Virus record (IMG/VR): IMGVR_UViG_3300017749_000005
Location: 1-64,000 of that record
Length of the DNA: 64,000 bases
DNA from: a virus
Strand: one strand, 5' to 3'
The position numbers and the translations under genes are program-made. This document shows, piece by piece, positions 49,937 to 64,000 of this stretch (its first letter is position 1; every line of letters starts with the position of its first letter). A model generated the notes under the pieces. It was not told where the DNA came from and did not search any database. It saw nothing but the letters and a program-made list of their open reading frames with translations.

Positions 49937-49947
49937 AATATTATTAT

Positions 49948-51055: not shown

Positions 51056-51056
51056 A

Positions 51057-53696
51057 TTACTTAAGTTTTTCTTCTATTGCTATTAATCTTTCCTCTAACT
51101 CTAGTATTGCTTTATGCATATGAGCAACAACGCCTCTATCACTCATAGATAAATAACCTTCATTATTTTCATAAACTGTATGAGGTATTGCTTCTCTAAC
51201 TTCTTGTGCTATAAAACCAGATTCTTTTTCACCGCTTTTAATATAGTTATAAGATGTAAATTGTTTTATAACATTTAAACCTTCTTTAATAGGTTTTATT
51301 TCTGACTTAAGCCTTTTATCAGAGGATATTTTAAAGTTATCAGCAGTAACATCCCCACTGGAAAGGGTTATATCACCACTAGAGAGGGTTATATCACCAC
51401 TAGAAAGTGTTATATCCCCATTAGAAACGGTCATATTACCATTCGTACCAAAAATAAAATCACCGGTATTACCTCCACTACTTACAATTTCAAAGTTTCT
51501 ACTAGAACTAGCTGAACCTGTTTGGTTGTATGAGTAAATTCTATTAGCACCTCCAGCAACACCTATAACTACTGAGCCTCCAGTTCCATTAGTCATGGTT
51601 GATCTAATTTCAAAATAATTACCTGAAGTGTTTCCACTTTGACTAAATATAGATCTAGTATTTATAACACTTGTTGTGCCTATAGATATTTGTTTTACAG
51701 AAAGAGTGTTTGAGCTAGGATTAAAAAATATACTACTACTAGTACTTGAATCTCTGCTTAAAGCATTTGCAGCACTATTGAAAAAAGGTATTTGAAAAAA
51801 ACTGTTTGCGGTGGTTGATGTTACATCTAAACTAAAAACTGTTCCAGCTAAATCAACGCCTGAATTAGCAGAGTAAGTAGTGTTTGTATCTGTTGATGCT
51901 ATTGTTATGTTATCAGCATCCGTGTGAGTTAATGTTATATTAGATCCTGCAACAAATTTTATGTCATCACTTCCACTTCCTGCACCACCCGTTGTGTTTC
52001 TTAAAATTATATCGTTATTACTATCTACGAATGATAATGTTGTAGTGTTTTGAGTATTATCATTAGCTGTCATATCATCAACAGCTAAATCTATAGTTCC
52101 ATCACCATCTTGGTAAGTTACTGAAATTCTAGTTTCAGTATTATTACTAAACATTGCACCTACTATATCTTGAACTGCTTCTGTTGATAACTGACTGTCA
52201 GTCCATGGTACATTAATAACTGCTTGGTTATTACTATTTAATTGTAGTCCATATGTTCTTCCAGCAACAGATGTTGCTGCGTTAGCAGCATTGTTTAAGT
52301 TTGTGTCGTATCTTAGTTCAATACCACCTCTTATACTACTGGTGGCAATAGGTAGTGTATAAGTCCCTGGAGGAGTAGCCCATTGATTGTCACCTCTCAG
52401 AAATGTTGACGAATTAGGTGTTCCTCCAGCAGATAAATCAGGAGCTATGGTTACGGAACCAGTTACAGCACTAAGAGCTGATAATGAAACAAAAGTGCCA
52501 TTTGATGATGTTATTGATGTTTGGACTACTTCAGCCCAAGTAGCATCTCCTCTTAAAAATTTAAGCTCTTCATTTACAGCTGGTGCAGGAACTACTCCTA
52601 CTGAACCAGCAGTGTTTTCTGAAGTATCAGCACCTCCGAATGTTGGTAGTGTTCTTTTAGTTATTTCAGTAACATGACCGTACGCGTCAGAGACAAATGT
52701 GTGTAAAACATCTACAGCATTCGTAGTTATAGATTTTGCTGTATATTCATCATGACTAATTGTTATAGTGTCATCAGCAGTTATTATAGAGCTTATAGGT
52801 ACCGATGCAAGTATGTTTAATGTATCTAAAGCTGTACCACTAGTACTATGTATATCTATAGATGTTGTGAAAGCGGGATTGCCCACAGCAGGATTATTAG
52901 TACTATCAGCTGCTATATTAAATTTATAGTCAGGTAATATATATGTGTGTATCTGCTCCTTTATTACGTGACCCTTAGCATCACTTATCACAGCATCTGT
53001 TGTAGTGGTTACACCATTACTATCAGTATTTGAAACAGGTGCTGCTGCCTTGAAAGTACTGTCGTCTTCCAACTGTTTGTTAGGCGAAATAGATGCATTA
53101 GTTCTAGATACATCATTGTGATATATAGAAACTTTATCAGCAGCTGAATCTAAGCTTAATGTACTTATCCATGCATCTCCACCACTAATAGTTAGTGTTT
53201 GTTCAAAGTTTATTGTCTGGGATTGACTATCTACAGAGCCACTACCACTGTGATTAACACTCGCATCACCAATAACATTAAAACTATACTCTTCAGGCAT
53301 AGTAAATTCAGTTAAAGTGTAATTAGTTAAATGACCAGTAGTGTTAGTAGTTACACTGGTTATAGCACTAAATATATGAGGTGTGTTACTAGTTGTACCA
53401 TTACCATAATTATCTTTAGCATATAAAATAATTCCAGGATTTGGATCTTGTTTAGTTAGTAGTTGTGCGGCGTGTTCCCAGTTTCTATGCCCATCTTCAG
53501 AATCAATTCCTATAACTATAGGTGATGATGCTGTAAAATCTCCACCACCAAAAAACTCCTGCAAGTCAGACATGCGATAATTCTTAGTAGTGTATACAGG
53601 TCTATTACTAGAATCTGTACCATTATATTCAGAACCTATGACTATATCATCAGCCGATATTTCTATATCCCTTATATATGTACTAATTCTTGCCAT
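51057..53696 (-). CDS. Tail fibre protein with C-terminal S74-type intramolecular chaperone domain
   Basis: 879 aa with the MARISTY N-terminal domain and two FLRGDxxWA motifs typical of fibres. The repeat SGDITLS occurs three times. The C-terminus is SDKRLKSEI...SGFIAQEVREAIPHTV...coiled coil. Confidence 0.8.
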   Translation of the reverse strand: MARISTYIRDIEISADDIVIGSEYNGTDSSNRPVYTTKNYRMSDLQEFFGGGDFTASSPIVIGIDSEDGHRNWEHAAQLLTKQDPNPGIILYAKDNYGNGTTSNTPHIFSAITSVTTNTTGHLTNYTLTEFTMPEEYSFNVIGDASVNHSGSGSVDSQSQTINFEQTLTISGGDAWISTLSLDSAADKVSIYHNDVSRTNASISPNKQLEDDSTFKAAAPVSNTDSNGVTTTTDAVISDAKGHVIKEQIHTYILPDYKFNIAADSTNNPAVGNPAFTTSIDIHSTSGTALDTLNILASVPISSIITADDTITISHDEYTAKSITTNAVDVLHTFVSDAYGHVTEITKRTLPTFGGADTSENTAGSVGVVPAPAVNEELKFLRGDATWAEVVQTSITSSNGTFVSLSALSAVTGSVTIAPDLSAGGTPNSSTFLRGDNQWATPPGTYTLPIATSSIRGGIELRYDTNLNNAANAATSVAGRTYGLQLNSNNQAVINVPWTDSQLSTEAVQDIVGAMFSNNTETRISVTYQDGDGTIDLAVDDMTANDNTQNTTTLSFVDSNNDIILRNTTGGAGSGSDDIKFVAGSNITLTHTDADNITIASTDTNTTYSANSGVDLAGTVFSLDVTSTTANSFFQIPFFNSAANALSRDSSTSSSIFFNPSSNTLSVKQISIGTTSVINTRSIFSQSGNTSGNYFEIRSTMTNGTGGSVVIGVAGGANRIYSYNQTGSASSSRNFEIVSSGGNTGDFIFGTNGNMTVSNGDITLSSGDITLSSGDITLSSGDVTADNFKISSDKRLKSEIKPIKEGLNVIKQFTSYNYIKSGEKESGFIAQEVREAIPHTVYENNEGYLSMSDRGVVAHMHKAILELEERLIAIEEKLK
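51345..51419 (-). repeat. Three and a half tandem 21-bp in-frame repeats (GDITLSS heptapeptide)
   Basis: Read directly from the sequence: GGTGATATAACCCTCTCTAGT-type units just upstream of the IMC domain. Confidence 0.85.
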
Positions 53697-53807
53697 TTAC
53701 TCTTTTTTATCGTTAATCATAACATGTAAAGCAGATATACCCGCTAGCAACACTATCAATATTGTTATTAAGGCAATAAAATCACCTGTATTCATTAAAG
53801 CTGTCAT
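53697..53807 (-). CDS. 36-aa single-TM mini-protein MTALMNTGDFIALITILIVLLAGISALHVMINDKKE
   Basis: Below the track cutoff. It exactly fills the gap: its start is 6 nt after the upstream stop, and its stop abuts the fibre ATG. Confidence 0.5.
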   Translation of the reverse strand: MTALMNTGDFIALITILIVLLAGISALHVMINDKKE

Positions 53808-53812
53808 TTTTA

Positions 53813-54088
53813 TTAAGTTTTTTTCATAATTTTAGTGCTAAAACCCTCTTTTTTAGTCCCTTTTCCATCGTTTCCACGATTAGCCTTAACACTTTTAAAT
53901 TTATTGTCCTTATGGTCGTAGTCCTTACCCTTCATAGATGGATTATCTCGATGCTTTTTCTGTGAATCAGCCTTTTTAGCACGCCGATCAGCCCTCATTG
54001 CCCTCTTCTTGTCACGTACCTTCTTAGCAGCCGCAGCCTTAGCACTTAGCTTTTGCTTAGGACCACCCTTTTTCTTAGGTTTTGCCAT
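53813..54088 (-). CDS. 91-aa highly basic protein; first gene of the leftward module
   Basis: Trimmed to the ATG at 54088 (MAKPKKKGGPKQKLSAKAAAAKKVRDKKR...). The track extension begins at a TTG inside the palindromic element. Confidence 0.6.
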   Translation of the reverse strand: MAKPKKKGGPKQKLSAKAAAAKKVRDKKRAMRADRRAKKADSQKKHRDNPSMKGKDYDHKDNKFKSVKANRGNDGKGTKKEGFSTKIMKKT

Positions 54089-54149
54089 AATGTTTTTACC
54101 TTTTTGTCTATAAGATACTATTACATGGAAATAACTGTTATTAATACAG

Positions 54150-54195
54150 TGTGACAATAGCCCCTTACTCTATACTATAACTACCTAATGTCACA
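54150..54195. promoter_or_regulatory. Palindromic element copy 1 (TGTGACAATAG-N24-CTAATGTCACA)
   Basis: It has terminal inverted repeats TGTGACA/TGTCACA plus TAG/CTA, and the internal sequence is about 80% identical between copies. It sits at the divergence point of the leftward and rightward modules. Confidence 0.7.
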
Positions 54196-54416
54196 GTTTA
54201 GAAATATAGGGATTTTGTATTATACCTACATTATTAAATTTACAAAGCAAAACACAAACTCTTTTTATTTACCCCACCCCCACCTACATTTCACATTTTT
54301 CATTATATTTTTTTGCGTTTACCCTTTACACCACACTACACAACAGCTACTACTATATAATTTACTTATAACTTTTTATCTTTTTTCCTCTCTTATGTAT
54401 AGCATTTTTATATTTT

Positions 54417-54441
54417 AAATACGACTCGTCATGGATAATAT
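54417..54441 (+). promoter_or_regulatory. Bipartite promoter-like motif P1: AAATACGA-CTCGTCAT-GGATAATAT
   Basis: One of 12 copies with an exact 8-nt spacer. It is preceded by the 18-mer ATGTATAGCATTTTTATA, which it shares with P5. Confidence 0.65.
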
Positions 54442-54493
54442 ATATATAATAAATAACTTATCTCTTTTTTTTAAATTAAGAATTTTATAAAAT

Positions 54494-54518
54494 AAATACT
54501 AATATAAAGGGATAATAT
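54494..54518 (+). promoter_or_regulatory. Bipartite promoter-like motif P2: AAATACTA-ATATAAAG-GGATAATAT
   Basis: It has the upstream TTTTATAAAAT extension. The ATG of 54565 lies 46 nt downstream. Confidence 0.65.
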
Positions 54519-54564
54519 AATTAATAAATAAATAAATAAATTTTAAACTTTAAACGAGAATTCT

Positions 54565-54801
54565 ATGGAAACTTTAAACATAACTACTAAAAGATTTGTA
54601 ATTCGTAAAACATTAATTGGTACTAATACCATTATAACCTTCACTACTAACAAAGGTAATAAGGTAACGTACGACCACGACAAAGTATATAACGCACACA
54701 AACAACGGTTTGAAGATATGCCTTGCTTTGCAAAATATAAATCCTATACCAATACCAATAACTTACCAGTATTTGTTAGGAATATGAAGGAGCTTGTATA
54801 A
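54565..54801 (+). CDS. Early small protein, family A (paralogue of 55817..56059)
   Basis: 78 aa. KRFVIRKTLIGTNTIITF..YDHDKVYN..KYKSYTNTNNLPVFVRN aligns along its length with the 80-aa paralogue. Confidence 0.65.
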   Translation: METLNITTKRFVIRKTLIGTNTIITFTTNKGNKVTYDHDKVYNAHKQRFEDMPCFAKYKSYTNTNNLPVFVRNMKELV

Positions 54802-54817
54802 GCTTCTTTTATAAAAC

Positions 54818-54842
54818 AAATACTATTTTAAATGGATAATAA
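54818..54842 (+). promoter_or_regulatory. Bipartite promoter-like motif P3: AAATACTA-TTTTAAAT-GGATAATAA
   Basis: Same architecture as the other copies. It is the only copy ending in A. Confidence 0.6.
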
Positions 54843-54869
54843 ATATAAATAAATATAAATAAATATACT

Positions 54870-55121
54870 ATGATAGATTATAATAATAAAATGAAAACAA
54901 TACTTGGTAACAACCTTGAGTTAATGATTAGAGATAGAGCATTCGATAGCTGCTCATACATAGATGAAGATCGTGATCAGATCTACTGCATAATAAAGCA
55001 TAGCTTTGATCTGTATAAAAACAACGACTTTGAGGACATGCTCGATGGTGCTGACGAAGTCAGTGAGTTGTATGACCGACAGTCAGAACTTTATGAAACG
55101 CAGCTACTTTTTGTTAAGTAG
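54870..55121 (+). CDS. Early small acidic protein, family B (paralogue of 55282..55554)
   Basis: 83 aa. The C-terminal half (LYKNNDFEDMLDGADEVSEL...ETQLL) parallels LYENEDFVMILDGAEATSEM...ETQLI. Confidence 0.6.
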   Translation: MIDYNNKMKTILGNNLELMIRDRAFDSCSYIDEDRDQIYCIIKHSFDLYKNNDFEDMLDGADEVSELYDRQSELYETQLLFVK

Positions 55122-55183
55122 TTGCTTATTAAAGTAAGTAAGTAAGTGCTATACACCACTGGTTAGTTATTTTTTTATAAAAT

Positions 55184-55208
55184 AAATACTAATAAAGTTG
55201 GATAATAT
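55184..55208 (+). promoter_or_regulatory. Bipartite promoter-like motif P4: AAATACTA-ATAAAGTT-GGATAATAT
   Basis: Same architecture, with the upstream TTTTTATAAAAT. Confidence 0.65.
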
Positions 55209-55281
55209 ATATAATTAAATAATATAATAATAATACCAATAAACAATTGTACGGCGATTTTGCCACAGAACCTTAAACCCC

Positions 55282-55554
55282 ATGCTTATGGAGCCGTTTG
55301 AGTTGAAAAATCCTGCATCACCTGCAGGTATGTTGGTTGCTGAATTTGGCAACTGTGTGTTTAATTTCCTGGATCATGAAGGTCTGCTAACTATCGAGTG
55401 CGAGCGAGTACACGATGGTAAGTTGTATGCGACTTTCACTCATGACCGTAGCTTATACGAGAATGAGGATTTCGTCATGATTCTGGACGGTGCTGAGGCT
55501 ACCTCAGAAATGACCACCGACCAAGGCTGGATAGAAACCCAGCTAATAGCTTAA
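55282..55554 (+). CDS. Early small protein, family B, GC-rich allele
   Basis: 90 aa. Codon usage and GC (42-48% on hand-counted lines) differ sharply from the flanks. Confidence 0.6.
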   Translation: MLMEPFELKNPASPAGMLVAEFGNCVFNFLDHEGLLTIECERVHDGKLYATFTHDRSLYENEDFVMILDGAEATSEMTTDQGWIETQLIA

Positions 55555-55664
55555 GCTAACTAGCTAAGCTAGTTTACTGCTAAGTAACCATCGCCCACCG
55601 CGATGTGTATAGCAGACCTATGCCCTTTTCATTAGAAACTAGATGCTTTAATAAATGATAATAC

Positions 55665-55712
55665 TGTGACAATAGCCTGTTACTCTATATTATATAATAG
55701 CCTAATGTCACA
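55665..55712. promoter_or_regulatory. Palindromic element copy 2 (TGTGACAATAG-N26-CTAATGTCACA)
   Basis: Same arms as copy 1 and in the same orientation. It is followed by T8 and then the 18-mer and P5. Confidence 0.7.
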
Positions 55713-55750
55713 CTTTTTTTTAATAGTAATGTATAGCATTTTTATAAAAT

Positions 55751-55775
55751 AAATACGAACCAAGTTGGATAATAT
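55751..55775 (+). promoter_or_regulatory. Bipartite promoter-like motif P5: AAATACGA-ACCAAGTT-GGATAATAT
   Basis: Same architecture. It is preceded by ATGTATAGCATTTTTATA at the same 4-nt offset as P1. Confidence 0.65.
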
Positions 55776-55816
55776 AACTGAAATAAATAATTAATTAAAC
55801 TTAAATAAATTTAACT

Positions 55817-56059
55817 ATGGCTACTACTAAATTAAATAATAAAACTACTAAAAGATTTATAATCTCCAAATCTTTAATTGGTACTAATACTATAATTACC
55901 TTTAAAAATAATAAAGGTGATGACTGTACTTATAATCATGATAAAGTATATAATACTTTAAAAGACAGATTTGAAGCAATGGCATGCTTTCAGAAGTATA
56001 AAAGCTATACTAATTCCAATAATCTACCAAAGTTTGTTAGAAATATAGAATTTGCTTAA
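55817..56059 (+). CDS. Early small protein, family A (paralogue of 54565..54801)
   Basis: 80 aa; see 54565..54801. Confidence 0.65.
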   Translation: MATTKLNNKTTKRFIISKSLIGTNTIITFKNNKGDDCTYNHDKVYNTLKDRFEAMACFQKYKSYTNSNNLPKFVRNIEFA

Positions 56060-56067
56060 CATTAGTA

Positions 56068-56108
56068 GTCAGAGAGTTTGCCTTATGGCTGCTCTCTGCT
56101 ATTTTCTA
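56068..56108 (+). terminator. Candidate intrinsic terminator
   Basis: CAGAGAG-N16-CTCTCTG, with an inner GCC/GGC pair, followed by CTATTTTCT. It lies 9 nt after the stop of 55817..56059. Confidence 0.5.
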
Positions 56109-56144
56109 TTAAATAATATATCCACTTTTTAAATAAATAAAACT

Positions 56145-56384
56145 ATGACTTTTAATAAACTACAATCACTAGTTCCTAATACTGAATTACACTATATATC
56201 TGACTCAGATGAGTTTTTCTCTGATAATAATCTTAATATGGAAAACTATAAACAATATAAATATATTCTATTCGAGTATACTATAGATAATATGAGTGAG
56301 ACTATTAACTCACTAGATTATAATAATATAAATTATAAAATAGAAACTGATGATTTTGACTTAGACTACATTTTAATAAAATAA
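56145..56384 (+). CDS. Early acidic 79-aa protein
   Basis: D/E/N/Y-rich with no Arg. No motif. Confidence 0.55.
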   Translation: MTFNKLQSLVPNTELHYISDSDEFFSDNNLNMENYKQYKYILFEYTIDNMSETINSLDYNNINYKIETDDFDLDYILIK

Positions 56385-56386
56385 AT

Positions 56387-56506
56387 ATGAATGATTTTCC
56401 TTATGGTGATTTCCTAGTAGAACTAATGCTAGCAAATACCAAATTTACCTTAGAAGAAATAAATGAGATGACTAGAGATGAAATTAACATGCACTTAGGT
56501 TATTAG
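56387..56506 (+). CDS. 39-aa ORF MNDFPYGDFLVELMLANTKFTLEEINEMTRDEINMHLGY
   Basis: Below the track cutoff. It starts 3 nt after the upstream stop and has non-low-complexity composition. Confidence 0.4.
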   Translation: MNDFPYGDFLVELMLANTKFTLEEINEMTRDEINMHLGY

Positions 56507-56517
56507 TTTTATAAAAT

Positions 56518-56542
56518 AAATACTGATAGCATTGGATAATAT
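56518..56542 (+). promoter_or_regulatory. Bipartite promoter-like motif P6: AAATACTG-ATAGCATT-GGATAATAT
   Basis: Same architecture, with the upstream TTTTATAAAAT. Confidence 0.6.
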
Positions 56543-56579
56543 ATATAAATAAATTTTAAACATTTAAACATTTACTACT

Positions 56580-56720
56580 ATGCCTAAAAAATATAACACC
56601 ATAAAAATTATATCACCTAAAAAAATACTCCTTAATAACATTGCTTTTATTAAAATCAATTCCACTCTCGAGTATAAATCTTTCATCACTTATAAAAATA
56701 ATCACTATGCGCAAGCATAG
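56580..56720 (+). CDS. 46-aa ORF MPKKYNTIKIISPKKILLNNIAFIKINSTLEYKSFITYKNNHYAQA
   Basis: It is the first ATG ORF after P6, 37 nt downstream. Below the track cutoff. Confidence 0.35.
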   Translation: MPKKYNTIKIISPKKILLNNIAFIKINSTLEYKSFITYKNNHYAQA

Positions 56721-56739
56721 TTTTTAAACTAACAGAACT

Positions 56740-57012
56740 ATGATTAAATCACTAGCGCTAGCAGCAATGCTATACACCCCACAGGTAGACTCTGTTTCAA
56801 CTGAAGTATATATGTCATCACTTGAAATGATAAGTGATATGGCAAAAGATATTAGTCATAAAAACTTTGTTAAGTCAGAAATAATAATAACACTAGAAGA
56901 CTTATCTGAGTGGATGAGAAATGATATAGATAATGAAACTATAGATCCTCGCTTAGCAGAAATATACATTAATAATTTTAACAAACTAATTAAACAAGTA
57001 AAAGAATTATGA
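56740..57012 (+). CDS. Early 90-aa protein with hydrophobic N-terminus
   Basis: The start MIKSLALAAMLYTP is signal-like. The rest is acidic and helical. Confidence 0.55.
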   Translation: MIKSLALAAMLYTPQVDSVSTEVYMSSLEMISDMAKDISHKNFVKSEIIITLEDLSEWMRNDIDNETIDPRLAEIYINNFNKLIKQVKEL

Positions 57013-57134
57013 AGCAAAATAAATACTATCACCCAGTAACAAAAGTAGAGATGTCAAGAAAAGACTACATGGAACTTATGTTTGGCAAAGAGTTTATGAA
57101 CTCTAAAGATAAAGGTACCTTAAAAGAATATTAA
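57009..57134 (+). CDS. 41-aa ORF (MKQNKYYHPVTKVEMSRKDYMELMFGKEFMNSKDKGTLKEY)
   Basis: It has an ATGA overlap with the upstream stop. Below the track cutoff. Confidence 0.4.
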   Translation: MKQNKYYHPVTKVEMSRKDYMELMFGKEFMNSKDKGTLKEY

Positions 57135-57136
57135 TT

Positions 57137-57307
57137 ATGCAACTAACTGAAAAAGAAAAAGATGTACTAGAATCAGTACTATACTATGCTAAAGAAAACT
57201 ACTATGTTCTTTGGCATGCAGGTGAGATGAAAACTAAGAGGTATGAAGAATATGCACTAGCCATAGAATCAATTAAAAAGAAGATATGGACAAGTGAAGA
57301 TGACTAA
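57137..57307 (+). CDS. 56-aa ORF (MQLTEKEKDVLESVLYYAKENYYVLWHAGEMKTKRYEEYALAIESIKKKIWTSEDD)
   Basis: It starts 3 nt after the upstream stop. Below the track cutoff. Confidence 0.45.
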   Translation: MQLTEKEKDVLESVLYYAKENYYVLWHAGEMKTKRYEEYALAIESIKKKIWTSEDD

Positions 57308-57315
57308 TATAATTC

Positions 57316-57340
57316 AAATACGAATGACTATGGATAATAT
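57316..57340 (+). promoter_or_regulatory. Bipartite promoter-like motif P7: AAATACGA-ATGACTAT-GGATAATAT
   Basis: Same architecture. The ATG of the next gene lies exactly 4 nt after the motif. Confidence 0.65.
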
Positions 57341-57344
57341 AAAT

Positions 57345-57494
57345 ATGAAAAATAAAAAATCAAATATTTTTGTAACTAATTTTGGTATGCTTACGCACTT
57401 ACTAAGCGATGGCTATTATTATGGAATAGTAGGTGTAAAAGCTAAATCTCAAGACAAGTACAATGCAGAAATTAAATTTAAATATGGAAAATAA
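57345..57494 (+). CDS. 49-aa early protein (MKNKKSNIFVTNFGMLTHLLSDGYYYGIVGVKAKSQDKYNAEIKFKYGK)
   Basis: The track ORF 57294..57494 is trimmed because its 5' part is the P7 motif itself (MDNINM is an artefact also seen at 60107 and 58077). Confidence 0.5.
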   Translation: MKNKKSNIFVTNFGMLTHLLSDGYYYGIVGVKAKSQDKYNAEIKFKYGK

Positions 57495-57726
57495 AATAGA
57501 AATACCCGCAGAACATTGGCAAAAGCTTTCAGCAGAGATACGAGAAGCAGTAGAATTGTTTCTTGAAGATGTAGCAGATAATATAAATGACTATGAACCA
57601 GACTACATACTCAGTGACAAAGGTCAAGTTGCTATACACAACATCAACTTCGGCAGTCAAGCAGACGAGTTACTAATAGATAACATACTAAACAACTACT
57701 TTAAATTAAAAGAACATGATAAATAA
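57484..57726 (+). CDS. Early protein, family C (ADNINDYEPD domain; paralogue of 58277..58654)
   Basis: Trimmed to MENKIEIP. LEDVADNINDYEPDYILSDKGQVAIHNI aligns with LDSTADNINDYEPDFEIGYNNEVSISNI. Confidence 0.55.
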   Translation: MENKIEIPAEHWQKLSAEIREAVELFLEDVADNINDYEPDYILSDKGQVAIHNINFGSQADELLIDNILNNYFKLKEHDK

Positions 57727-57883
57727 GGTTGAGCATTCAGAGTGTATAGACGCACTTGACTACTTGTCAGGTTTTATATGTGAAATGACAAGAGATAAAA
57801 AACACTACGTTACAATATTAATGAAGCGAGTGGCAAATGAGTATAATATTAAACTAGAATTTGACGAAGATGAAAAGATATAA
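57716..57883 (+). CDS. 55-aa ORF (MINKVEHSECIDALDYLSGFICEMTRDKKHYVTILMKRVANEYNIKLEFDEDEKI)
   Basis: It overlaps the upstream stop by 11 nt and fills an otherwise empty 140-nt stretch. Below the track cutoff. Confidence 0.45.
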   Translation: MINKVEHSECIDALDYLSGFICEMTRDKKHYVTILMKRVANEYNIKLEFDEDEKI

Positions 57884-58064
57884 TGTAGAACTACGACCTC
57901 ACACAGATGATGGTGATTATCACGAAGAAGATTATGAGTTTGACGACCTTGAAGAAGCAATTGCTTTTTCTAAGAAAAATAGAATTGATTTATATGCACT
58001 AACAGACTATGGCTCAGAAGGTAAAACTTATGATCCAAGAGATATAACTCACAAAATAAAATAA
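57870..58064 (+). CDS. 64-aa acidic early protein
   Basis: Trimmed to the ATG at 57870 (MKRYNVELRPHTDDGDYHEEDYEFDDLEE...). Confidence 0.5.
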   Translation: MKRYNVELRPHTDDGDYHEEDYEFDDLEEAIAFSKKNRIDLYALTDYGSEGKTYDPRDITHKIK

Positions 58065-58087
58065 ATACGAAACACTTTGGATAATAT
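58063..58087 (+). promoter_or_regulatory. Bipartite promoter-like motif P8: AAATACGA-AACACTTT-GGATAATAT
   Basis: It overlaps the stop of the upstream gene. The ATG of the next gene lies exactly 4 nt after the motif. Confidence 0.65.
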
Positions 58088-58091
58088 ATAT

Positions 58092-58274
58092 ATGAATAAA
58101 TTAACACATTTCCAAAAGCTTATGTTAACTGAATGTATAAACAGTCATTTAACTAAATTACATGATGATGTAGTAGAGTATCACGAGCAATATCCTGATA
58201 AGAATCTACTCATTGGTCCTAAATTTTACCTACAAGAAAGAGATGAAATACTACGTAAACTTAAATTAGATTAA
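58092..58274 (+). CDS. 60-aa early protein (MNKLTHFQKLMLTECINSHL...)
   Basis: Trimmed from the track ORF 58077..58274, whose first codons are the P8 motif. Confidence 0.5.
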   Translation: MNKLTHFQKLMLTECINSHLTKLHDDVVEYHEQYPDKNLLIGPKFYLQERDEILRKLKLD

Positions 58275-58276
58275 CT

Positions 58277-58654
58277 ATGAATAAACAAGAAATAGAAGAA
58301 AAGATCAAGGATCTTACTAGACAAATAGAATATAATAATACTGCTAACGAGCGAATGAGAAACCAAATAAATTCACTAAACGAAGATATTATGATACTAG
58401 AAAAACCTAAAATATTAGAAAGTGATCTTGAAATAATGATTCAAGATATAGCTGACATAGTGTCAACTATATTAGATTCAACAGCTGATAATATAAACGA
58501 CTACGAGCCTGATTTTGAAATAGGATATAACAATGAAGTTTCAATATCTAACATATGCTTAGACTATGATGCTACTGAAGATATTAAAACATATCTTCAA
58601 ACAAGATTTTATACAGTTGTACCTGACCAAACAACTGATGAAGATACTAAATAA
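58277..58654 (+). CDS. Early protein, family C (coiled-coil N-terminus plus ADNINDYEPD domain)
   Basis: 125 aa; see 57484..57726. Confidence 0.6.
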   Translation: MNKQEIEEKIKDLTRQIEYNNTANERMRNQINSLNEDIMILEKPKILESDLEIMIQDIADIVSTILDSTADNINDYEPDFEIGYNNEVSISNICLDYDATEDIKTYLQTRFYTVVPDQTTDEDTK

Positions 58655-58685
58655 TAAACTATTCATTAAAGAGTATTTATAATAT

Positions 58686-58710
58686 AAATACGATTACTTA
58701 CGGATAATAT
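58686..58710 (+). promoter_or_regulatory. Bipartite promoter-like motif P9: AAATACGA-TTACTTAC-GGATAATAT
   Basis: Same architecture, in an intergenic position. Confidence 0.65.
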
Positions 58711-58738
58711 ATATATAAACAAATAAATAAATAAACCT

Positions 58739-58969
58739 ATGGACACCACTACTTTAATTAACCTACTTAAGTCACATGATTGGTACTACCACTACAGTGA
58801 CGATCACAGCAAATGGATCAATGGCGTACAGTCACAGCGAGCTATCTATGACGCTATGGATGAACTCGGTAACACCGATGATGTAAAACAATTATATTAT
58901 GAGTATATGCCTAAGCATTTATTTGATAAAATAGAGAAGGCAAATGCTATACACGGCGAAATATTATGA
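58739..58969 (+). CDS. Early 76-aa protein
   Basis: A clean ORF 28 nt after P9. Confidence 0.55.
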   Translation: MDTTTLINLLKSHDWYYHYSDDHSKWINGVQSQRAIYDAMDELGNTDDVKQLYYEYMPKHLFDKIEKANAIHGEIL

Positions 58970-59055
58970 TTAGATTTGTAGGTACAATAGTACAAATACT
59001 ATATTTCTGTATGATAATAACACTTATTATATCAATATATAAATTCTTTTTTTAA
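58966..59055 (+). CDS. 29-aa hydrophobic peptide MIRFVGTIVQILYFCMIITLIISIYKFFF
   Basis: It has an ATGA overlap upstream and a TAATG overlap downstream, which suggests a translationally coupled micro-gene. Very short. Confidence 0.35.
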   Translation: MIRFVGTIVQILYFCMIITLIISIYKFFF

Positions 59056-59312
59056 TGATTAAACCTGAATGGCATTTTATGGAACGTGATAAAAGACTAA
59101 TAAGAATATACTCTGACATACAAGGTAGGTTGAGTATACTTCGCGAAGATCTAACAGTTGTAGACAATACACTAAAAAAACTGTTAGCTAATAAACCTAT
59201 ATATTTACAAGATATAAATACAGTACGTGATTTGCTAGGCGATGATTTGTCTGAAAGATTACAGAACTTAGTTGTAAGTGATGATTATCCACCTAATCCA
59301 AATAGAATATGA
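59055..59312 (+). CDS. Early 85-aa protein
   Basis: A clean ORF coupled on both sides. Confidence 0.55.
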   Translation: MIKPEWHFMERDKRLIRIYSDIQGRLSILREDLTVVDNTLKKLLANKPIYLQDINTVRDLLGDDLSERLQNLVVSDDYPPNPNRI

Positions 59313-59665
59313 AGCTGATAAAAGTTGTACCTAAAACTCAAGCTATGTACTATAGGTTAAAAGATAACCGCATAGGTGTGATATATCCTAACACAGGTTA
59401 TATCAGAGTAAGTCCTAGTTGGGTAAATGATCCTGACTACACTAAACATATGCAACCATATGCATTACAACGTAAGATAAACAACACTAAAAACTTAATC
59501 TTATATCAGATAAATCCTAAGAAAAAGATAACATCACCAAATGGTAATTATACTTACGTTAGGATATTGTTTGAAGACATATGGAAAATGCAACAATACT
59601 TAGAAGAATATGAAAACAAAAACTGTACTAAACAAACCGATGGAAGATATAAAACCATGCCTTGA
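59309..59665 (+). CDS. Early 118-aa protein
   Basis: It has an ATGA overlap with the upstream gene. No motif. Confidence 0.55.
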   Translation: MKLIKVVPKTQAMYYRLKDNRIGVIYPNTGYIRVSPSWVNDPDYTKHMQPYALQRKINNTKNLILYQINPKKKITSPNGNYTYVRILFEDIWKMQQYLEEYENKNCTKQTDGRYKTMP

Positions 59666-59975
59666 ATGTGGCAAAATGCATACTAGACGTAAATTCTGTT
59701 CACCATACTGTGGCTCTAAATACAGTGCTAAAAATAAAAGATTAGAAATGGGTGTAAACGATCCAGTTTTTGCAACAGCAAATATAAATGCTATCATTAA
59801 AGGTAGAGACACACCTATAGTAGACAACTCTTTTAATTTTATATTCTCAAACAAACTAGAAGATTGGTTAGGTAGTAAGAATAAATTAAGAAGAGATAAA
59901 TGGAGAGAAGCTAAAGTAAGACAGAAATTAAAAAAACAACAGCAAATAAATGGAGAAAACACCAAAACAAATTGA
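59640..59975 (+). CDS. Zinc-ribbon protein (CxxC...CxxxC) with basic C-terminus
   Basis: MEDIKPCLECGKMHTRRKFCSPYCGSKY. The start is ambiguous: ATG 59610 or 59640. Confidence 0.5.
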   Translation: MEDIKPCLECGKMHTRRKFCSPYCGSKYSAKNKRLEMGVNDPVFATANINAIIKGRDTPIVDNSFNFIFSNKLEDWLGSKNKLRRDKWREAKVRQKLKKQQQINGENTKTN

Positions 59976-60114
59976 TACAATATATTACAATGAACCTGAG
60001 TCAAGAGTTTGTAAGTATAATTTTGTTTTCTCTAATAAAATAAAAGATTGGATTTACGGTGCTCAAAGGATGAAGAATATTAAATACAAATCAAATACGA
60101 ACAAAGATGGATAA
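59950..60114 (+). CDS. 54-aa ORF sharing the F.FSNK[IL].DW motif with the preceding protein
   Basis: MEKTPKQIDTIYYNEPESRVCKYNFVFSNKIKDWIYGAQR... compares with FNFIFSNKLEDWLGSK in 59640..59975. It runs through P10. Below the track cutoff. Confidence 0.35.
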   Translation: MEKTPKQIDTIYYNEPESRVCKYNFVFSNKIKDWIYGAQRMKNIKYKSNTNKDG

Positions 60115-60117
60115 TAT
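60093..60117 (+). promoter_or_regulatory. Bipartite promoter-like motif P10: AAATACGA-ACAAAGAT-GGATAATAT
   Basis: Same architecture. The ATG of the next gene lies exactly 4 nt after the motif. Confidence 0.65.
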
Positions 60118-60121
60118 AAAT

Positions 60122-60304
60122 ATGAATGATGAAATCGAAATAAAAGTTAATAAGAGATTCATGGTAAATACTATTATACATTTATCCCTTGAATCAAATC
60201 ATATGTCACTTAGTAATGTACCAGATGTTAGAGAGTTATATGAGACTATGACCATAGATCAAGTTAAAGAAGATTTTGAACGTTTAAAAGCAATATATAA
60301 ATGA
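60122..60304 (+). CDS. 60-aa early protein (MNDEIEIKVNKRFMVNTIIHL...)
   Basis: Trimmed from 60107..60304, whose first codons are the P10 motif. Confidence 0.5.
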   Translation: MNDEIEIKVNKRFMVNTIIHLSLESNHMSLSNVPDVRELYETMTIDQVKEDFERLKAIYK

Positions 60305-60492
60305 GAACATTTAATAGATATAAAACAAATCTACGTATGCACGATGGTGATATATGGAGTTATAATACTAAAGTTGCTACAATATCTGATGGTAAGCTAA
60401 TTGTACCTAAGTGGTATTCAGTTACTACCAGCAAGCACGTTAACTATGCAGCACACCAATTAGGTTTACAAATCGTAAGAGAATATGAATAG
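60301..60492 (+). CDS. 63-aa early protein
   Basis: It has an ATGA overlap. The SYNTKVA...SVTTSKHVN pattern looks like a conserved small phage domain, but I cannot name it. Confidence 0.5.
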   Translation: MRTFNRYKTNLRMHDGDIWSYNTKVATISDGKLIVPKWYSVTTSKHVNYAAHQLGLQIVREYE

Positions 60493-60877
60493 CTTACAAC
60501 GACGGGTTTACGAAAAGCTTGAGCTTATAGTATATAAAAACCTAGATCAAGATCAACTAGACAGTTACAAAATATCATATGAAGTTATATATGGTATGAC
60601 TGCTTGTCAGTTGCCATGCTATACACTTAAAAACGCCACAGACTTCTCAATACACGAAAATTTATTCGTAGATAAAGATCTTTTTGATCAAAGAGTTGTA
60701 GATTTGTGCATAACATATTGGCCATTTAACCTTCACGTAGATACTAAAAAGCTACCTATAACTATAGCTGAGAATCAAAACCAAGGTTTAGATAATGGTT
60801 TATGTACTAAAATATTAAAGAAAATAGATAGTCTTGAAAACGACTATAATAACGATTCAATCAGAAGATTTTTATAG
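60485..60877 (+). CDS. 130-aa early protein
   Basis: A clean ORF overlapping the upstream gene by 8 nt. Confidence 0.55.
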   Translation: MNSLQRRVYEKLELIVYKNLDQDQLDSYKISYEVIYGMTACQLPCYTLKNATDFSIHENLFVDKDLFDQRVVDLCITYWPFNLHVDTKKLPITIAENQNQGLDNGLCTKILKKIDSLENDYNNDSIRRFL

Positions 60878-60913
60878 TACTATTTAGTAGTAGTGTTTAT
60901 TTAGTTAGTTAAC

Positions 60914-61001
60914 TGTAAGGTGGTGGAATTGGCAGACACGCTACCCTATCTCGGTAGTAGTAACATATGTTACTTTGGAGGTTCGAATCCTCCTCTTACA
61001 G
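60914..61001 (+). tRNA. Class-II (long variable arm) tRNA-like gene with a non-canonical anticodon loop
   Basis: Hand-folded cloverleaf. Acceptor stem TGTAAGG/TCTTACA. D arm GTG-GAATTGGCAGA-CAC (Leu-like). Anticodon stem CTACC/GGTAG with loop CTATCTC. Variable arm GTAAC-ATAT-GTTAC. T arm GGAGG-TTCGAAT-CCTCC. No CCA is encoded. Confidence 0.7.
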
Positions 61002-61019
61002 CAATTTAAATTAAAAGTT

Positions 61020-61127
61020 ATGGGATTATTAGCTTGGCAGTGTTGTCACTGTAATGCATTTAATGGAATATATAGAGTTAAATGTGGTAAATGTAATAAT
61101 AAAAAGAAAGTTAAAATGTTATTTTAA
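61020..61127 (+). CDS. 35-aa zinc-ribbon mini-protein MGLLAWQCCHCNAFNGIYRVKCGKCNNKKKVKMLF
   Basis: It has the CxxC-N10-CxxC pattern and ends 1 nt before the next ATG. Below the track cutoff. Confidence 0.45.
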   Translation: MGLLAWQCCHCNAFNGIYRVKCGKCNNKKKVKMLF

Positions 61128-61128
61128 T

Positions 61129-61308
61129 ATGGAAATTAAATTTATTTTATTCATTTACGGACTACTTATAATACTGATATTCAGTATGTTAGCTCTAAAC
61201 TGCTACAAAGACTGGGTAAATAAAAAGGAAAATTTTATTGACTTTGTGCTTTTTGCTGTGATAGATATTATTACCATCATAGCTTTCATAGCTCAATTTA
61301 TAAATTAA
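61129..61308 (+). CDS. 59-aa two-TM membrane protein
   Basis: Trimmed to MEIKFILFIYGLLIILIFSMLALN... The second helix is FVLFAVIDIITIIAFIAQFI. Confidence 0.5.
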   Translation: MEIKFILFIYGLLIILIFSMLALNCYKDWVNKKENFIDFVLFAVIDIITIIAFIAQFIN

Positions 61309-61331
61309 ATACGATTACTATAGGATAATAT
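61307..61331 (+). promoter_or_regulatory. Bipartite promoter-like motif P11: AAATACGA-TTACTATA-GGATAATAT
   Basis: Same architecture. It overlaps the stop of the membrane-protein gene. Confidence 0.65.
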
Positions 61332-61360
61332 ATTTATACAAACCAATTCAAATTTAAACC

Positions 61361-61732
61361 ATGGAAACCGAAGAAAAAGTAGCAGCCGTGCTCAATCATT
61401 ACGGAACAACAATCACACACGATTATAATGATCAAGGCAATACAGAATATGTAATGTATTCAGATATAACTAGAGATGGTTACGATTTATACGTAGCTAA
61501 ATTTAATGGCGAACCAAGTAATGGCGCTTTATATTTATCTGAGCATGTTTGCATGTATGACCATGACTTATGTCAAATACTTATACAAGAGATACGTAAA
61601 GAAGGTATTGAAATGTATATTGAGGATGATATATATGAAAAATGTCATTTTGATGATGTACTTCAAGATGAATTTTATTATCTACAAGATAATGATAAAG
61701 AGTTCTTAGATAAATATCCAATGGAAGATTAA
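61361..61732 (+). CDS. 123-aa strongly acidic early protein
   Basis: D/E/Y-rich throughout. No motif. Confidence 0.55.
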   Translation: METEEKVAAVLNHYGTTITHDYNDQGNTEYVMYSDITRDGYDLYVAKFNGEPSNGALYLSEHVCMYDHDLCQILIQEIRKEGIEMYIEDDIYEKCHFDDVLQDEFYYLQDNDKEFLDKYPMED

Positions 61733-61733
61733 T

Positions 61734-62033
61734 ATGACAGATAAAGAAAAACAAGAGATAGCAGATATTGTTATCAAAAAGATGCTTGAAGCTAAGCATA
61801 AGATGGATAAAGATTTATTTAATATAAATGATGTACTATTTACTTTACTAAATACGCAGTTGTCTCAGGAAGAGATTCTGGTTGGTGAATTAGCTAGGCT
61901 AATGACATTGATGAATTTATATGAAGACAAAGAAGAATATGAGAAGGCTGCTATAATTAAGAACAAGGTAGACAAGATCAATGATAAACTTGATCAAATT
62001 GAAGACGAAAAACGAAACAATGGTAATATCTAA
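61734..62033 (+). CDS. 99-aa coiled-coil protein
   Basis: Heptad-like, K/E/L-rich sequence. Confidence 0.55.
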   Translation: MTDKEKQEIADIVIKKMLEAKHKMDKDLFNINDVLFTLLNTQLSQEEILVGELARLMTLMNLYEDKEEYEKAAIIKNKVDKINDKLDQIEDEKRNNGNI

Positions 62034-62361
62034 AATATTAGGAATATTAATGGTTACAGCTACAGTATACAATGCTGTACCCGAACAAACAGATTCTACG
62101 CCCCTTATAACAGCCTCAGGCGCACGAATTGATGAAAGATGTCCTGAACAACACCGATGGGTTGCTGTTTCACAGGATATGTTAAAACGAGGTTATAAGT
62201 TTGGTATGTGTATCGAGGTATCAGGTGCAGGAGATTTAGATGGCACTTGGGAAATACAAGATGTAATGAACAAGAGATATACAGACTCAATAGATTTTCT
62301 TGTAGAAGATACTAGAAAATTAGGTAAGTGGAAAAACGTAAAGATTAAACTAATAAGCTAA
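62020..62361 (+). CDS. Signal-anchored 3D-domain (MltA/RlpA-like double-psi beta-barrel) muralytic protein
   Basis: Trimmed to MVISKILGILMVTATVYNAV. Then come PEQTDSTPLITASG, WVAVSQDML, and G.WEIQDVMNKRYTDSIDFLV, the Asp-containing 3D-domain pattern. Confidence 0.6.
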   Translation: MVISKILGILMVTATVYNAVPEQTDSTPLITASGARIDERCPEQHRWVAVSQDMLKRGYKFGMCIEVSGAGDLDGTWEIQDVMNKRYTDSIDFLVEDTRKLGKWKNVKIKLIS

Positions 62362-62369
62362 AATAAATT

Positions 62370-62394
62370 AAATACGAACACTACAGGATAATAT
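62370..62394 (+). promoter_or_regulatory. Bipartite promoter-like motif P12: AAATACGA-ACACTACA-GGATAATAT
   Basis: Same architecture. The ATG of the next gene lies exactly 4 nt after the motif. Confidence 0.65.
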
Positions 62395-62398
62395 TATT

Positions 62399-62887
62399 AT
62401 GAATATATTTTATTTAGACCGAGACCCAATAAAAGCCGCAAGACATCAATATAATAAACATGTTGTTAAGATGATCTTAGAATCAGCCCAGATGCTGTGT
62501 ACGGCTCACAGGATGCATATGTTGGATTATGAATGCCATCATATACCTTATAAAAAAGCACACGTCAATCATCCTTCTAGTATGTGGGCCAGACGATCAG
62601 CAGAGAATTATGCTTGGTTATACAGTCATATGATAGAGCTAGGTAAACAGTATACCATTAGGTATGGTAAAATACATAAGACAATCAAAGATTGTGAAAA
62701 AGTATTAAGTTATTTACCTGGAGGTATATTGTATACAGGTTTTGAGGATCCACCGCAGTGTATGCCTGATGAGTATAAAGATGAATGTACTGTTAAGGCA
62801 TATTGGAAATATTATGTCGGAGACAAAAAAAATGTAGCTAATCGTAATGAAACTGTTAAGACTGATATACCTAAACAGTATGTGTGA
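62399..62887 (+). CDS. 162-aa conserved-looking hypothetical protein
   Basis: The N-terminus MNIFYLDRDPIKAARHQYNKHVVKMILESAQMLCTAH and HVNHPSSMWARRSAENYAWL look like a widely distributed viral family that I recall but cannot confidently name. A distant DNA-glycosylase-like relationship is only a guess. Confidence 0.5.
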   Translation: MNIFYLDRDPIKAARHQYNKHVVKMILESAQMLCTAHRMHMLDYECHHIPYKKAHVNHPSSMWARRSAENYAWLYSHMIELGKQYTIRYGKIHKTIKDCEKVLSYLPGGILYTGFEDPPQCMPDEYKDECTVKAYWKYYVGDKKNVANRNETVKTDIPKQYV

Positions 62888-62929
62888 CAATAGGGTATTA
62901 ATATAATAGGGTAAGGGGCTAATGTCACA
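62883..62929. promoter_or_regulatory. Palindromic element copy 3 (inverted relative to copies 1 and 2)
   Basis: TGTGACAATAGGGTATTAATATAATAGGGTAAGGGGCTAATGTCACA. Its reverse complement is about 80% identical to copy 1. It overlaps the upstream stop and the first candidate ATG of the HTH gene. Confidence 0.7.
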
Positions 62930-63548
62930 TAGAAATCTTGAATATTTACATCGTAATAAAATTATATATAAGATGTTTCCAACATCGGATAAACCTACAA
63001 AAACTTTTTATTGGGGTTATTTCTTTGAACAAGGTACACATCAGTGTTATGATCTGTTTCGTAGTAAAGCTAAGATTACATCTTATAAGTCTCTTAAATG
63101 GCATATGTATGTTCTATATTATATTAATAAATCAGAGTCTGAGGTCAGCATGAAAAAAATAATAGATTATATATGCAATAAAGACAATGGATTCATTACA
63201 TTTACAGTTAAGGACAACATTAAAGACAATATGATATCTGATGTTCTTAACTCTGATTTGGATGAACCACCAAAAAATAAATTAAGAAAAGTTATATTTA
63301 AAGACTCTACTGGTTTATCTACAAAGAAGAAGTTAAAGATAGTTGGAGAGTTAATAGGTAAGTCTAAGTTGGTTAATAATGATGACATATATGAGTGTAT
63401 GTTAGAAATTAATAACTCAAATACAAGAATTACAATAGCTAACTTAGCTAGAATATTAGGTTGTTCCTCAAGAACTATTCATAGAAATATGGACAAAGAG
63501 TTAAAAAGAGAAAAGGATATACTTAATATTCAAAATGAAGAAATATAA
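62922..63548 (+). CDS. DNA-binding protein with C-terminal helix-turn-helix
   Basis: 208 aa. ITIANLARILGCSSRTIHRNMDKEL is a strong HTH. The start may instead be ATG 62973 (MFPTSDKP), because 62922 lies inside the palindrome arm. Confidence 0.6.
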   Translation: MSHRNLEYLHRNKIIYKMFPTSDKPTKTFYWGYFFEQGTHQCYDLFRSKAKITSYKSLKWHMYVLYYINKSESEVSMKKIIDYICNKDNGFITFTVKDNIKDNMISDVLNSDLDEPPKNKLRKVIFKDSTGLSTKKKLKIVGELIGKSKLVNNDDIYECMLEINNSNTRITIANLARILGCSSRTIHRNMDKELKREKDILNIQNEEI

Positions 63549-64000
63549 TATAAATACATACAGGTTATATAAAGAAGATGTTAAGCAAACTATAAAATCT
63601 CTGCCTGACGTAGATTATGAGCAATTAACTAGAAACCAATTAATAACAAAATTTATGCCTCTTGTAGAAAATATCGCTAAAAAGTTTTCAACCGCTGCAC
63701 AAGCATCAGGTACATTAGACGTACTAGATATAATACAAGAAGGTAGTGTAGGTTTAGTTAAAGCTGTAGATAGGATAGATTGGAACGTGTTTAACTTATC
63801 AGAAGATAAAGAAAAGACCATGAAGTCTTTCTTATCAAAAAGAATAAGAGGTGCAATCAGAAGATCAATAGATATGTATCGAGGTGATATGCGTATACCT
63901 GAACATAAGTTAAATGATATACGTAAGAACTTTGGTAAAGATGAGAAGATGGTTGCTATGTTCTTCAACTCTATATTTTTATCTACAGATGATACAATGG
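63535..64000 (+). CDS. Sigma-70-family RNA polymerase sigma factor, N-terminal part (continues past the window end)
   Basis: It is not in the ORF track because there is no stop in the window. My own translation is MKKYNINTYRLYKEDVKQ...MPLVENIAKKF...LDIIQEGSVGLVKAVDRID...SFLSKRIRGAIRRSIDMYRGDMRIPEH. This matches region 2.1-2.4 (DLIQEGxxGLxKAxxxFD; YAxxWIRxAI). The start overlaps the HTH gene end by 14 nt. Confidence 0.75.
   Translation, partial: MKKYNINTYRLYKEDVKQTIKSLPDVDYEQLTRNQLITKFMPLVENIAKKFSTAAQASGTLDVLDIIQEGSVGLVKAVDRIDWNVFNLSEDKEKTMKSFLSKRIRGAIRRSIDMYRGDMRIPEHKLNDIRKNFGKDEKMVAMFFNSIFLSTDDTM

Follow-up and report, generated by a model that had tools for sequence, protein, structure and literature searches.

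What reads a short sequence motif that is repeated before the small genes of an uncultured phage? The question is raised by the IMG/VR virus record IMGVR_UViG_3300017749_000005, of which we analysed positions 1 to 64,000 (the window, 64,000 nucleotides (nt) in full length). The window is a rotation of a 68,128-bp genome (JGI contig Ga0187217_1000006); the 4.1 kb outside it hold the remainder of a sigma factor gene, followed by genes for ERF, exonuclease and primase-helicase. The motif copies are almost certainly a phage-specific promoter. Judged from the DNA sequence, the best account of them is recognition by the host core RNA polymerase carrying the phage-encoded sigma factor, to which we give somewhat less than an even chance.

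A first-pass annotation of the window had listed 12 copies of a bipartite motif, AAATACKR-N8-GGATAATAW, between 54417 and 62394. An exact-pattern search returned 12 matches at identical coordinates, all on the + strand, as compared to an expected count of 0.00 in shuffled sequences. Allowing two mismatches in the window gave no further match, and three mismatches added only three, all within giant leftward open reading frames (ORFs), with 4.7 expected. The motif family is therefore sharply bounded and set apart from chance matches. A thirteenth perfect copy (P13) is found at genome position 64301 (4470-4494 of stretch L003), 300 nt past the window end, between the sigma gene and the ERF gene. 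The leftward 49.5 kb, in which no copy had been seen by eye, indeed contain none, and there is none on the opposite strand. The annotation was also right about an 18-mer common to P1 and P5 at equal offset. Its statement that each copy lies upstream of a + strand ORF applies to all copies except P1, which is followed by no ORF and stands in tandem with P2, 77 nt downstream.

Positions are numbered from the base 4 nt after the motif as first written (motif position 29), which is designated +1. The full motif then consists of TATAA (-37 to -33), AAATACKR (-29 to -22), eight free bases, GGATAATATA (-13 to -4) and T(-1)A(+1). In the distal block A(-36) and A(-34) are present in 13 of 13 copies, T(-35) and A(-33) in 12 and T(-37) in 11; T(-1) and A(+1) are each found in 12. 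GATAAT, with A(-11) and T(-7), is invariant in all 13 copies, and P3 is the sole copy with A at -5. The spacer had been described as rigid in length and unconstrained in sequence. The length of 8 nt is rigid; the sequence is largely but not fully free, since T is preferred at -14 and a weak A-T-A follows AAATACGA. The motif has no dyad symmetry and no hairpin, and Rfam gave no match in the window.

By homology of the terminase large subunit (TerL) and the portal protein the phage belongs among the podoviruses of Flavobacteriaceae. Matches include MW202828.1 (TerL identity 63%, portal identity 53%) and the Flavobacterium elemo phages (45% and 42%). At TerL identities <60% they also include the Cellulophaga phages Calle_2 and phi40:1 (portal identity 37%), the Cellulophaga phages of the phi13:2 group (28%) and Tenacibaculum phage Gundel_1 (26%), and a Maribacter phage is a further match. 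Among the 76 start codons of the whole genome only 6 are preceded by Shine-Dalgarno-like 4-mers, and the upstream regions are A-rich (A at -3 in 68%, at -6 in 62%, at -12 in 63%), a pattern that matches Bacteroidota-type translation signals (PMC6847099). A Bacteroidota host is supported by both the homologies and the translation signals. Near-identical cultured relatives were not found. In GTDB genomes the sigma query gave no match, and the motif query gave mostly single chance matches and small phage fragments binned in unrelated metagenome-assembled genomes.

The exact 17-base pattern occurs in >119 IMG/VR contig stretches (contigs of 40-72 kb) that encode homologues of this phage's genes. 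Outside the pattern, 255 unique instances from this clade share TTACAA at -38 to -33 (ACA in ~97%) and T(-14) in 70%. The spacing was examined in 76 loci (1.2 Mb) picked solely by a sigma homologue. AATACKA-N9-GATAAT makes up 164 of the 168 instances on the sigma strand, and 2 are found on the other strand. Nearly all of these 76 contigs (sigma identity 53-95%) with enough upstream DNA carry 2-15 GATAATAW sites, which again lie on the sigma strand, with hardly any on the opposite one. No such motif is present in sigma-less relatives that share structural genes (MW202828.1, Flavobacterium elemo phage), and no tiling motif of any kind was found in the elemo phage. Three types of upstream block are distinguished by lineage: AAATACGA, CACGGACTTA at -37 to -28, and CTCACC-nn-TTAAATAATT. 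The upstream block and the base at -13 are uniform within a genome and differ between lineages, which indicates a phage-encoded reader. The -13 base tracks the sigma subclades, a correspondence that is confounded by phylogeny. Copy number among relatives varies from 3 at the array head in L130 to 13 here, and in a few lineages a leftward copy stands back to back with the first rightward copies.

MW202828.1, the closest relative in GenBank, has neither the sigma nor the helix-turn-helix (HTH) gene of this phage and carries a tiling of another kind. At least 16 copies of the perfect palindrome GTGTCGTTAACGACAC tile its rightward small genes (in 43000-60850, for example at 739-762, 1258-1281 and 2590-2613 of that segment), directly before start codons. 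This represents a different solution at the equivalent genome position.

Concerning the site of transcription initiation, in four copies an ATG (57345, 58092, 60122 or 62399) follows the motif at a distance of exactly 4 nt, as had been annotated. A purine occupies motif position 29, which is outside the search pattern, in 98% of the 255 unique clade instances (A 139, G 112). Furthermore, of 559 clade instances, 94 (17%) have the ATG of the first long ORF precisely at this position, as compared to 0-22 at neighbouring offsets. Since the conserved T-purine step and the spike of start codons coincide there, we assign GATAAT to the -10 hexamer at -12 to -7, with a predicted start 7 nt downstream. 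That the motif is a sigma-type promoter with its start at motif position +29 appears highly probable. Leaderless mRNAs are predicted for 4 of the 13 units in this phage and for ~17% of clade units, a share (17-31%) that compares with 5.5% in Flavobacterium psychrophilum (PMC9723704). The first-pass annotation had considered either nearly leaderless mRNAs or a transcribed GGATAATAT leader; the first is the better fit. Overall, the distance between motif and ATG ranges from 4 to 74 nt.

Table 1. Promoters and regulatory genes of the rightward module in the window. Promoter intervals span -38 to +1; the end coordinate is the predicted start site.
Feature	Interval	Core	Strand	Remarks
P1 promoter	54408..54446	54417-54441	+	Tandem with P2, no ORF between; predicted start 54446
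P2 promoter	54485..54523	54494-54518	+	Followed by gene 54565-54801 (78 aa)
P3 promoter	54809..54847	54818-54842	+	Followed by gene 54870-55121
P4 promoter	55175..55213	55184-55208	+	Followed by gene 55282-55554
P5 promoter	55742..55780	55751-55775	+	Followed by gene 55817-56059
P6 promoter	56509..56547	56518-56542	+	Followed by genes from 56580 onward
P7 promoter	57307..57345	57316-57340	+	Predicted +1 is A of ATG 57345; predicted leaderless
P8 promoter	58054..58092	58063-58087	+	Predicted +1 is A of ATG 58092; predicted leaderless
P9 promoter	58677..58715	58686-58710	+	Followed by gene 58739-58969
P10 promoter	60084..60122	60093-60117	+	Predicted +1 is A of ATG 60122; predicted leaderless
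P11 promoter	61298..61336	61307-61331	+	Followed by gene 61361-61732
P12 promoter	62361..62399	62370-62394	+	Predicted +1 is A of ATG 62399; predicted leaderless
HTH protein gene	62922..63548		+	208 aa; HTH_11 match
Phage sigma-70-family gene	63535..64000 (runs off the window; ends at genome position 64290)		+	251 aa

The rightward module extends from 54.2 kb to the window end and wraps round to window position 4603. The promoters thus head ~18.5 kb of DNA, and not the ~10 kb of small genes first proposed, with P13 at the head of a replication operon that wraps to window positions 1-4603. Downstream of P12 a gene for a 162-aa DNA-binding protein (phrog_624) is followed by the HTH gene and the sigma gene. 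The leftward 49.5 kb encode terminase, portal, tail fibres, GroEL/ES and two giant virion ORFs. P8 overlaps the stop codon of the ORF before it and P10 lies within the 3' end of ORF 59950-60114. A division into at least 11 short transcription units had been suggested. It is not borne out, as terminator-like hairpins are present at almost no junction between copies and almost no intrinsic terminators were found between units, which makes nested, overlapping read-through transcripts more likely than short units. The proposed phage-specific promoter class itself is supported, and it is confined to the rightward module. P2 and P5 precede paralogous genes (68% identity); no other small genes of the array are conserved as widely, and this pair has matches in 60-68 related stretches.

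The motif had been considered to fit neither sigma-70 nor Bacteroidetes promoter geometry. This view has to be corrected. The -10 element lies canonically at -12 to -7, and the upstream A/T block mentioned in the annotation holds a conserved TATAA or TTACAA that ends at -33, which leaves the 20-bp distance to -12 characteristic of Bacteroidota. With regard to geometry, the extra invariant 8-bp block at -29 to -22 inside the spacer is the only unusual feature. No conserved hexamer is present at -35 to -30, at the 16-18 bp spacing of a sigma-70 -35 element; conserved blocks are found instead at -38 to -33 and at -29 to -22.

The flavobacterial sigma-A box is TAnnTTTG at -12 to -5 (PMC9723704). 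Middle promoters of Cellulophaga phage phi14:2 have been attributed to the host polymerase (10.1101/2020.03.07.982082), and read from the genome they conform to TTG-N20-TAnnTTTGTA (e.g. g070, TTG-N20-TA). Such Bacteroidota sigma-A promoters share with the motif the 20-bp gap between a distal element ending at -33 and position -12, as well as A(-11) and T(-7). The genes behind them likewise have A-rich leaders without Shine-Dalgarno sequences. In contrast, bases -12 to -5 of the motif are GATAATAT, with only A(-11) and T(-7) in common with TAnnTTTG. The distal element (TATAA in the window, TTACAA at -38 to -33 in the clade) lacks TTG, G replaces T at -12, and the invariant spacer block is additional. 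GATAAT follows at a fixed distance after ~130 of 161 AAATACGA sites of the clade. In these ~130 promoters, anchored only on AAATACGA, G(-12) is kept in essentially all, and no T(-12) is found among the commonest 9-mers. A canonical host promoter, TTG-N17-22-TAnnTTTG, is absent from the coding strand of every intergenic region of this genome. TAGATTTGTA at 58971 was considered as a host promoter and rejected, being unconserved in close relatives.

The putative reader is encoded in the same module. The sigma protein matches Pfam Sigma70_r2 (residues 36-111) and r4 (187-238), NCBIfam RpoD_Cterm and the superfamily model TIGR02937 above its cut-off. Its PDB matches are SigA, SigB and FliA, and region 3.0 (RIPEH) is present. 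In Escherichia coli sigma-70, Q437 and T440 read position -12. A HMMER alignment to SigB shows that the positions of the E. coli W-W dyad, Q437 and T440 are occupied by K-R, G and R in the phage sigma. Given G and R at the Q437 and T440 positions, a phage sigma with altered -12 preference is plausible. The end of the HTH gene overlaps the sigma start by 14 nt, which suggests co-transcription, and the HTH gene is conserved next to sigma in 70 loci. The HTH protein is a possible partner or regulator of sigma. Altogether three genes for DNA-binding proteins are clustered at 62399-64290. Sigma homologues are numerous in marine metagenomes including Tara (>8000 proteins at E <= 1e-6), and none of the cultured phages in GenBank has this sigma.

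Close to the HTH gene we observed an inverted repeat, TGTGACA(A/T)TAG - ~21 nt - CTA(A/T)TGTCACA, which occurs at 54150-54195, 55665-55712 and 62883-62929 and also stands at the head of the leftward module. The stop codon of the 162-aa gene falls in the left arm of the third repeat, and the ATG (62922) of the HTH gene in its right arm. The repeat precedes the HTH gene in nearly all of the 70 related loci, also in lineages whose promoter motif differs. Its arms co-vary, and G-T / T-G changes would keep a + strand RNA hairpin. It probably either serves as operator for the HTH protein or forms a hairpin in which the start codon is hidden.

Sequence-level scans for families and motifs in the complete 68-kb genome revealed no RNA polymerase gene. 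DFDxD is absent in all frames, apart from a chance match in a 79-aa ORF. The giant ORFs (2577 and 2638 aa) contain no T7-type motif set and gave no match to Pfam, to PHROG polymerases or to PDB. A virion structural family is matched by the 2638-aa protein, and the ORFs of 686-898 aa are tail fibres. The 2577-aa virion ORF (6025-13758, - strand) has HExxH near residue 795 and is conserved only in its C-terminal ~660 aa. Its homologues span 2100-3900 aa and contain zeta-toxin, AAA or DNA-methyltransferase modules. HExxH and the toxin and methyltransferase modules of the homologues make it resemble a polyvalent ejected protein. Pfam and PHROG scans of 40 small proteins gave no MotA, AsiA or polymerase family.

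We propose that each copy would act as a promoter of sigma-70-family architecture, read by the multisubunit RNA polymerase of the host. The -10 hexamer GATAAT, flanked by G(-13) and ATA (-6 to -4), would direct initiation at the conserved purine 7 nt downstream, which at P7, P8, P10 and P12 is the A of the start codon, so that leaderless mRNAs would arise. Two elements would contribute upstream: TATAA / TTACAA at -38 to -33, the distance of the Bacteroidota '-33' element, and the invariant AAATACKR at -29 to -22. Specificity would come from the phage sigma (gene at 63535) on the host core enzyme, and the host holoenzyme would give only a weak first round, enough to make the phage sigma. The 13 copies would drive the 18.5-kb rightward module, that is ~30 small genes, the HTH-sigma pair and the replication operon, as nested, overlapping transcripts without terminators between copies.

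Promoter classes read by phage sigma factors are known from SPO1 (gp28, middle), phiEco32 and 7-11 (gp36) and T4 (gp55, late). As here, they involve a phage sigma-70-family protein and a rigid, phage-specific consensus unlike that of the host, repeated before many genes on one strand. Unlike in the SPO1, phiEco32 and T4 classes, the motif heads an early-type array and precedes even the sigma gene. Further differences from these classes are the tripartite structure with the block at -29 to -22, the Bacteroidota host and the ~1/3 of units predicted to be leaderless, and dependence on the phage sigma is here a proposal.

Several points weigh against the proposed role of the phage sigma. Its gene lies downstream of 12 of the promoters that are its proposed targets, which means that the motif must be readable by a factor already there when infection begins. 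In the lineage of L171, L172 and L202, no upstream element of its own precedes the HTH-sigma pair, which is reachable only from a P-type promoter. The recognition helix of sigma region 4, SAYVRVSQLKKQAV, is near-invariant across the clade, while the upstream block differs completely, so region 4 is not shown to read that block. Neither sigma region 4 nor the HTH helix was found to co-vary with the upstream block. The co-occurrence of sigma and motif is essentially one evolutionary event or contrast. Phage sigma factors usually serve middle or late genes. For the leftward module no convincing candidate for a second or late promoter class was found; before its conserved 100-aa gene there is only a small hairpin and an A/C-rich leader. 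The -10 element of the T7 A1 promoter is GATACT. RNA polymerase of Cellulophaga baltica transcribes T7 A1 in vitro (10.1101/2020.03.07.982082), and the host enzyme may therefore read GATAAT.

Much of this is in favour of the main alternative, which is somewhat less likely: that the unmodified host sigma-A holoenzyme reads the early promoters and that the phage sigma, made by read-through, serves another promoter class in the leftward late module. It would account for copies that head an early-type array and precede sigma, for the L171 lineage with no other promoter for its sigma, for invariant DNA-reading helices of sigma beside variable upstream blocks, and for a late module without the motif in most lineages. 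The 20-bp gap from the -33 block to -12 is also that of host-type promoters, and use of T7 A1 by the C. baltica enzyme fits as well. However, GATAATAT agrees with TAnnTTTG at two positions only, TTG is missing at -35 to -33, and G(-12) essentially always stands where the host prefers T. Such rigidity, including a -13 base specific to each genome, would be unusual for promoters of a housekeeping sigma. Moreover, the sigma-less relatives lack the motif, and the second promoter class required for the phage sigma did not come to light.

Less likely still is a mode of recognition as yet undescribed for a Bacteroidota polymerase. Here sigma, with G and R as its -12 readers, would act on G(-12)ATAAT together with another reader of the lineage-changing block at -29 to -22, firing precisely on the start codon and so giving leaderless mRNAs, and the first round would depend on a virion-borne factor, since the genome contains no host-type promoter.

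An additional phage DNA-binding factor might recruit the host polymerase, with either sigma, through the lineage-specific block, much as T4 appropriates sigma at its middle promoters; the 162-aa phrog_624 protein, the 208-aa HTH protein or a small protein could be this factor. Such recruitment is improbable, even though the invariant 8-bp block ends 9 bp upstream of the -10 hexamer, outside the normal position of sigma region 4, varies between lineages when sigma does not, and three DNA-binding proteins are encoded together at 62399-64290. T4 middle promoters (MotA box and sigma-70 -10) resemble the motif in that an upstream box near the -10 replaces the canonical -35. In contrast to T4, the box is centred at ~-25.5 and not at ~-30, and a distal block of the -33 type is retained. 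No MotA or AsiA homologue was detected in the 40 small proteins scanned, the recognition helix of the HTH protein varies no more than the sigma helix and is better suited to the equally conserved inverted repeat, and the factor would be needed before its own gene is transcribed.

A cryptic phage RNA polymerase, either virion-borne (as in N4 and crAss-like phages) or T7-like, is very unlikely. A rigid ~30-nt consensus repeated before early genes, two giant virion ORFs and the lack of a canonical host promoter would be in accordance with it, and P1 shares AATACGACTC with the T7 consensus. The giant ORFs, however, have no DFDxD, T7-type motif set or Pfam/PDB match; one is polyvalent-like, the other matches a structural family, and the 686-898-aa ORFs are tail fibres. 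P1 resembles the T7 consensus in its free spacer only, and the other copies show no such resemblance; A(-11), T(-7) and the spacing to +1 are a sigma-type signature. Promoters of the T7 group are comparable in their rigid consensus before genes, which is constant near the start and lineage-specific further upstream, and P1 resembles TAATACGACTC. They differ in their contiguous conservation from ~-17 to +6, whereas here the central 8 nt are free, the geometry is sigma-type -10/+1 and there is no gene for a single-subunit polymerase. Two identities were rejected on these grounds. A crAss-like phage with a virion polymerase does not agree with the missing DFDxD, the 68-kb genome and a TerL that groups with Flavobacterium/Cellulophaga podoviruses; a T7-like promoter does not agree with the missing polymerase gene and a resemblance limited to the P1 spacer.

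Repeated early-promoter cassettes mediate gene shuffling in T4-type phages, and all copies here lie at gene junctions; still, that the motif is no promoter at all and serves as operator, as recombination cassette for small-gene shuffling or as a signal for RNA processing or translation is hardly credible, as the spacer differs in every copy between invariant flanks, which disfavours gene conversion and favours base-specific reading, the variable distance to the ATG does not suit a ribosome-binding signal, dyad symmetry and hairpins are missing and the -10/+1 signature is promoter-specific. In PeSL cassettes of T4-type phages near-identical early promoters likewise flank many small, fast-evolving ORFs in varying copy number, but here there is no stem-loop, and conservation is limited to the reading positions and does not include the whole cassette.

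None of the systems compared has this consensus, the block at -29 to -22 or a systematic start on the ATG. In the literature searched, neither the motif strings nor Cellulophaga and Flavobacterium phage promoters led to a description of the motif. The architecture is largely explicable.

The phage clade is very abundant, marine and uncultured. A three-block promoter model with a start site could delimit early transcription units in hundreds of contigs, and could also serve the prediction of leaderless genes and the mining of metatranscriptomes for 5' ends. Transcription signals of Bacteroidota are atypical and genetic tools are scarce, and an orthogonal pair of sigma and promoter working on a flavobacterial core enzyme would be useful. 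In addition, the constant -10 element combined with lineage-specific upstream blocks is a natural series for studying the evolution of promoter specificity.

Further elements were noticed near the array. The 8-mer GCTATACA occurs 13 times as compared to 2.9 expected, a number reached in 0 of 100 shuffles. Its sites include 54396-54403(-), 55148-55155(+), 55606-55613(-) and 55730-55737(-), plus 9 more, and its complement is part of the 18-mer of P1 and P5. In five related stretches (L186, L197, L139, L151, L154) it lies at a fixed short distance upstream of promoters. The divergent modules are separated by 220 nt of non-coding DNA (54196-54416), C-rich on the + strand (ccccacccccacc) and without Rfam match. 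In some relatives (e.g. L158 1990-2075, - strand) a leftward promoter copy is followed by a ~110-nt G-rich leader, the inverted repeat and a gene for a basic protein. Leftward transcription could be gated here by a structured leader or a small RNA. Finally, ARAGORN predicts an 89-nt tRNA-Asp with anticodon ATC at 60914-61002, where Rfam finds no tRNA at gathering score in the window; this may be a degenerate or atypical tRNA-like element.

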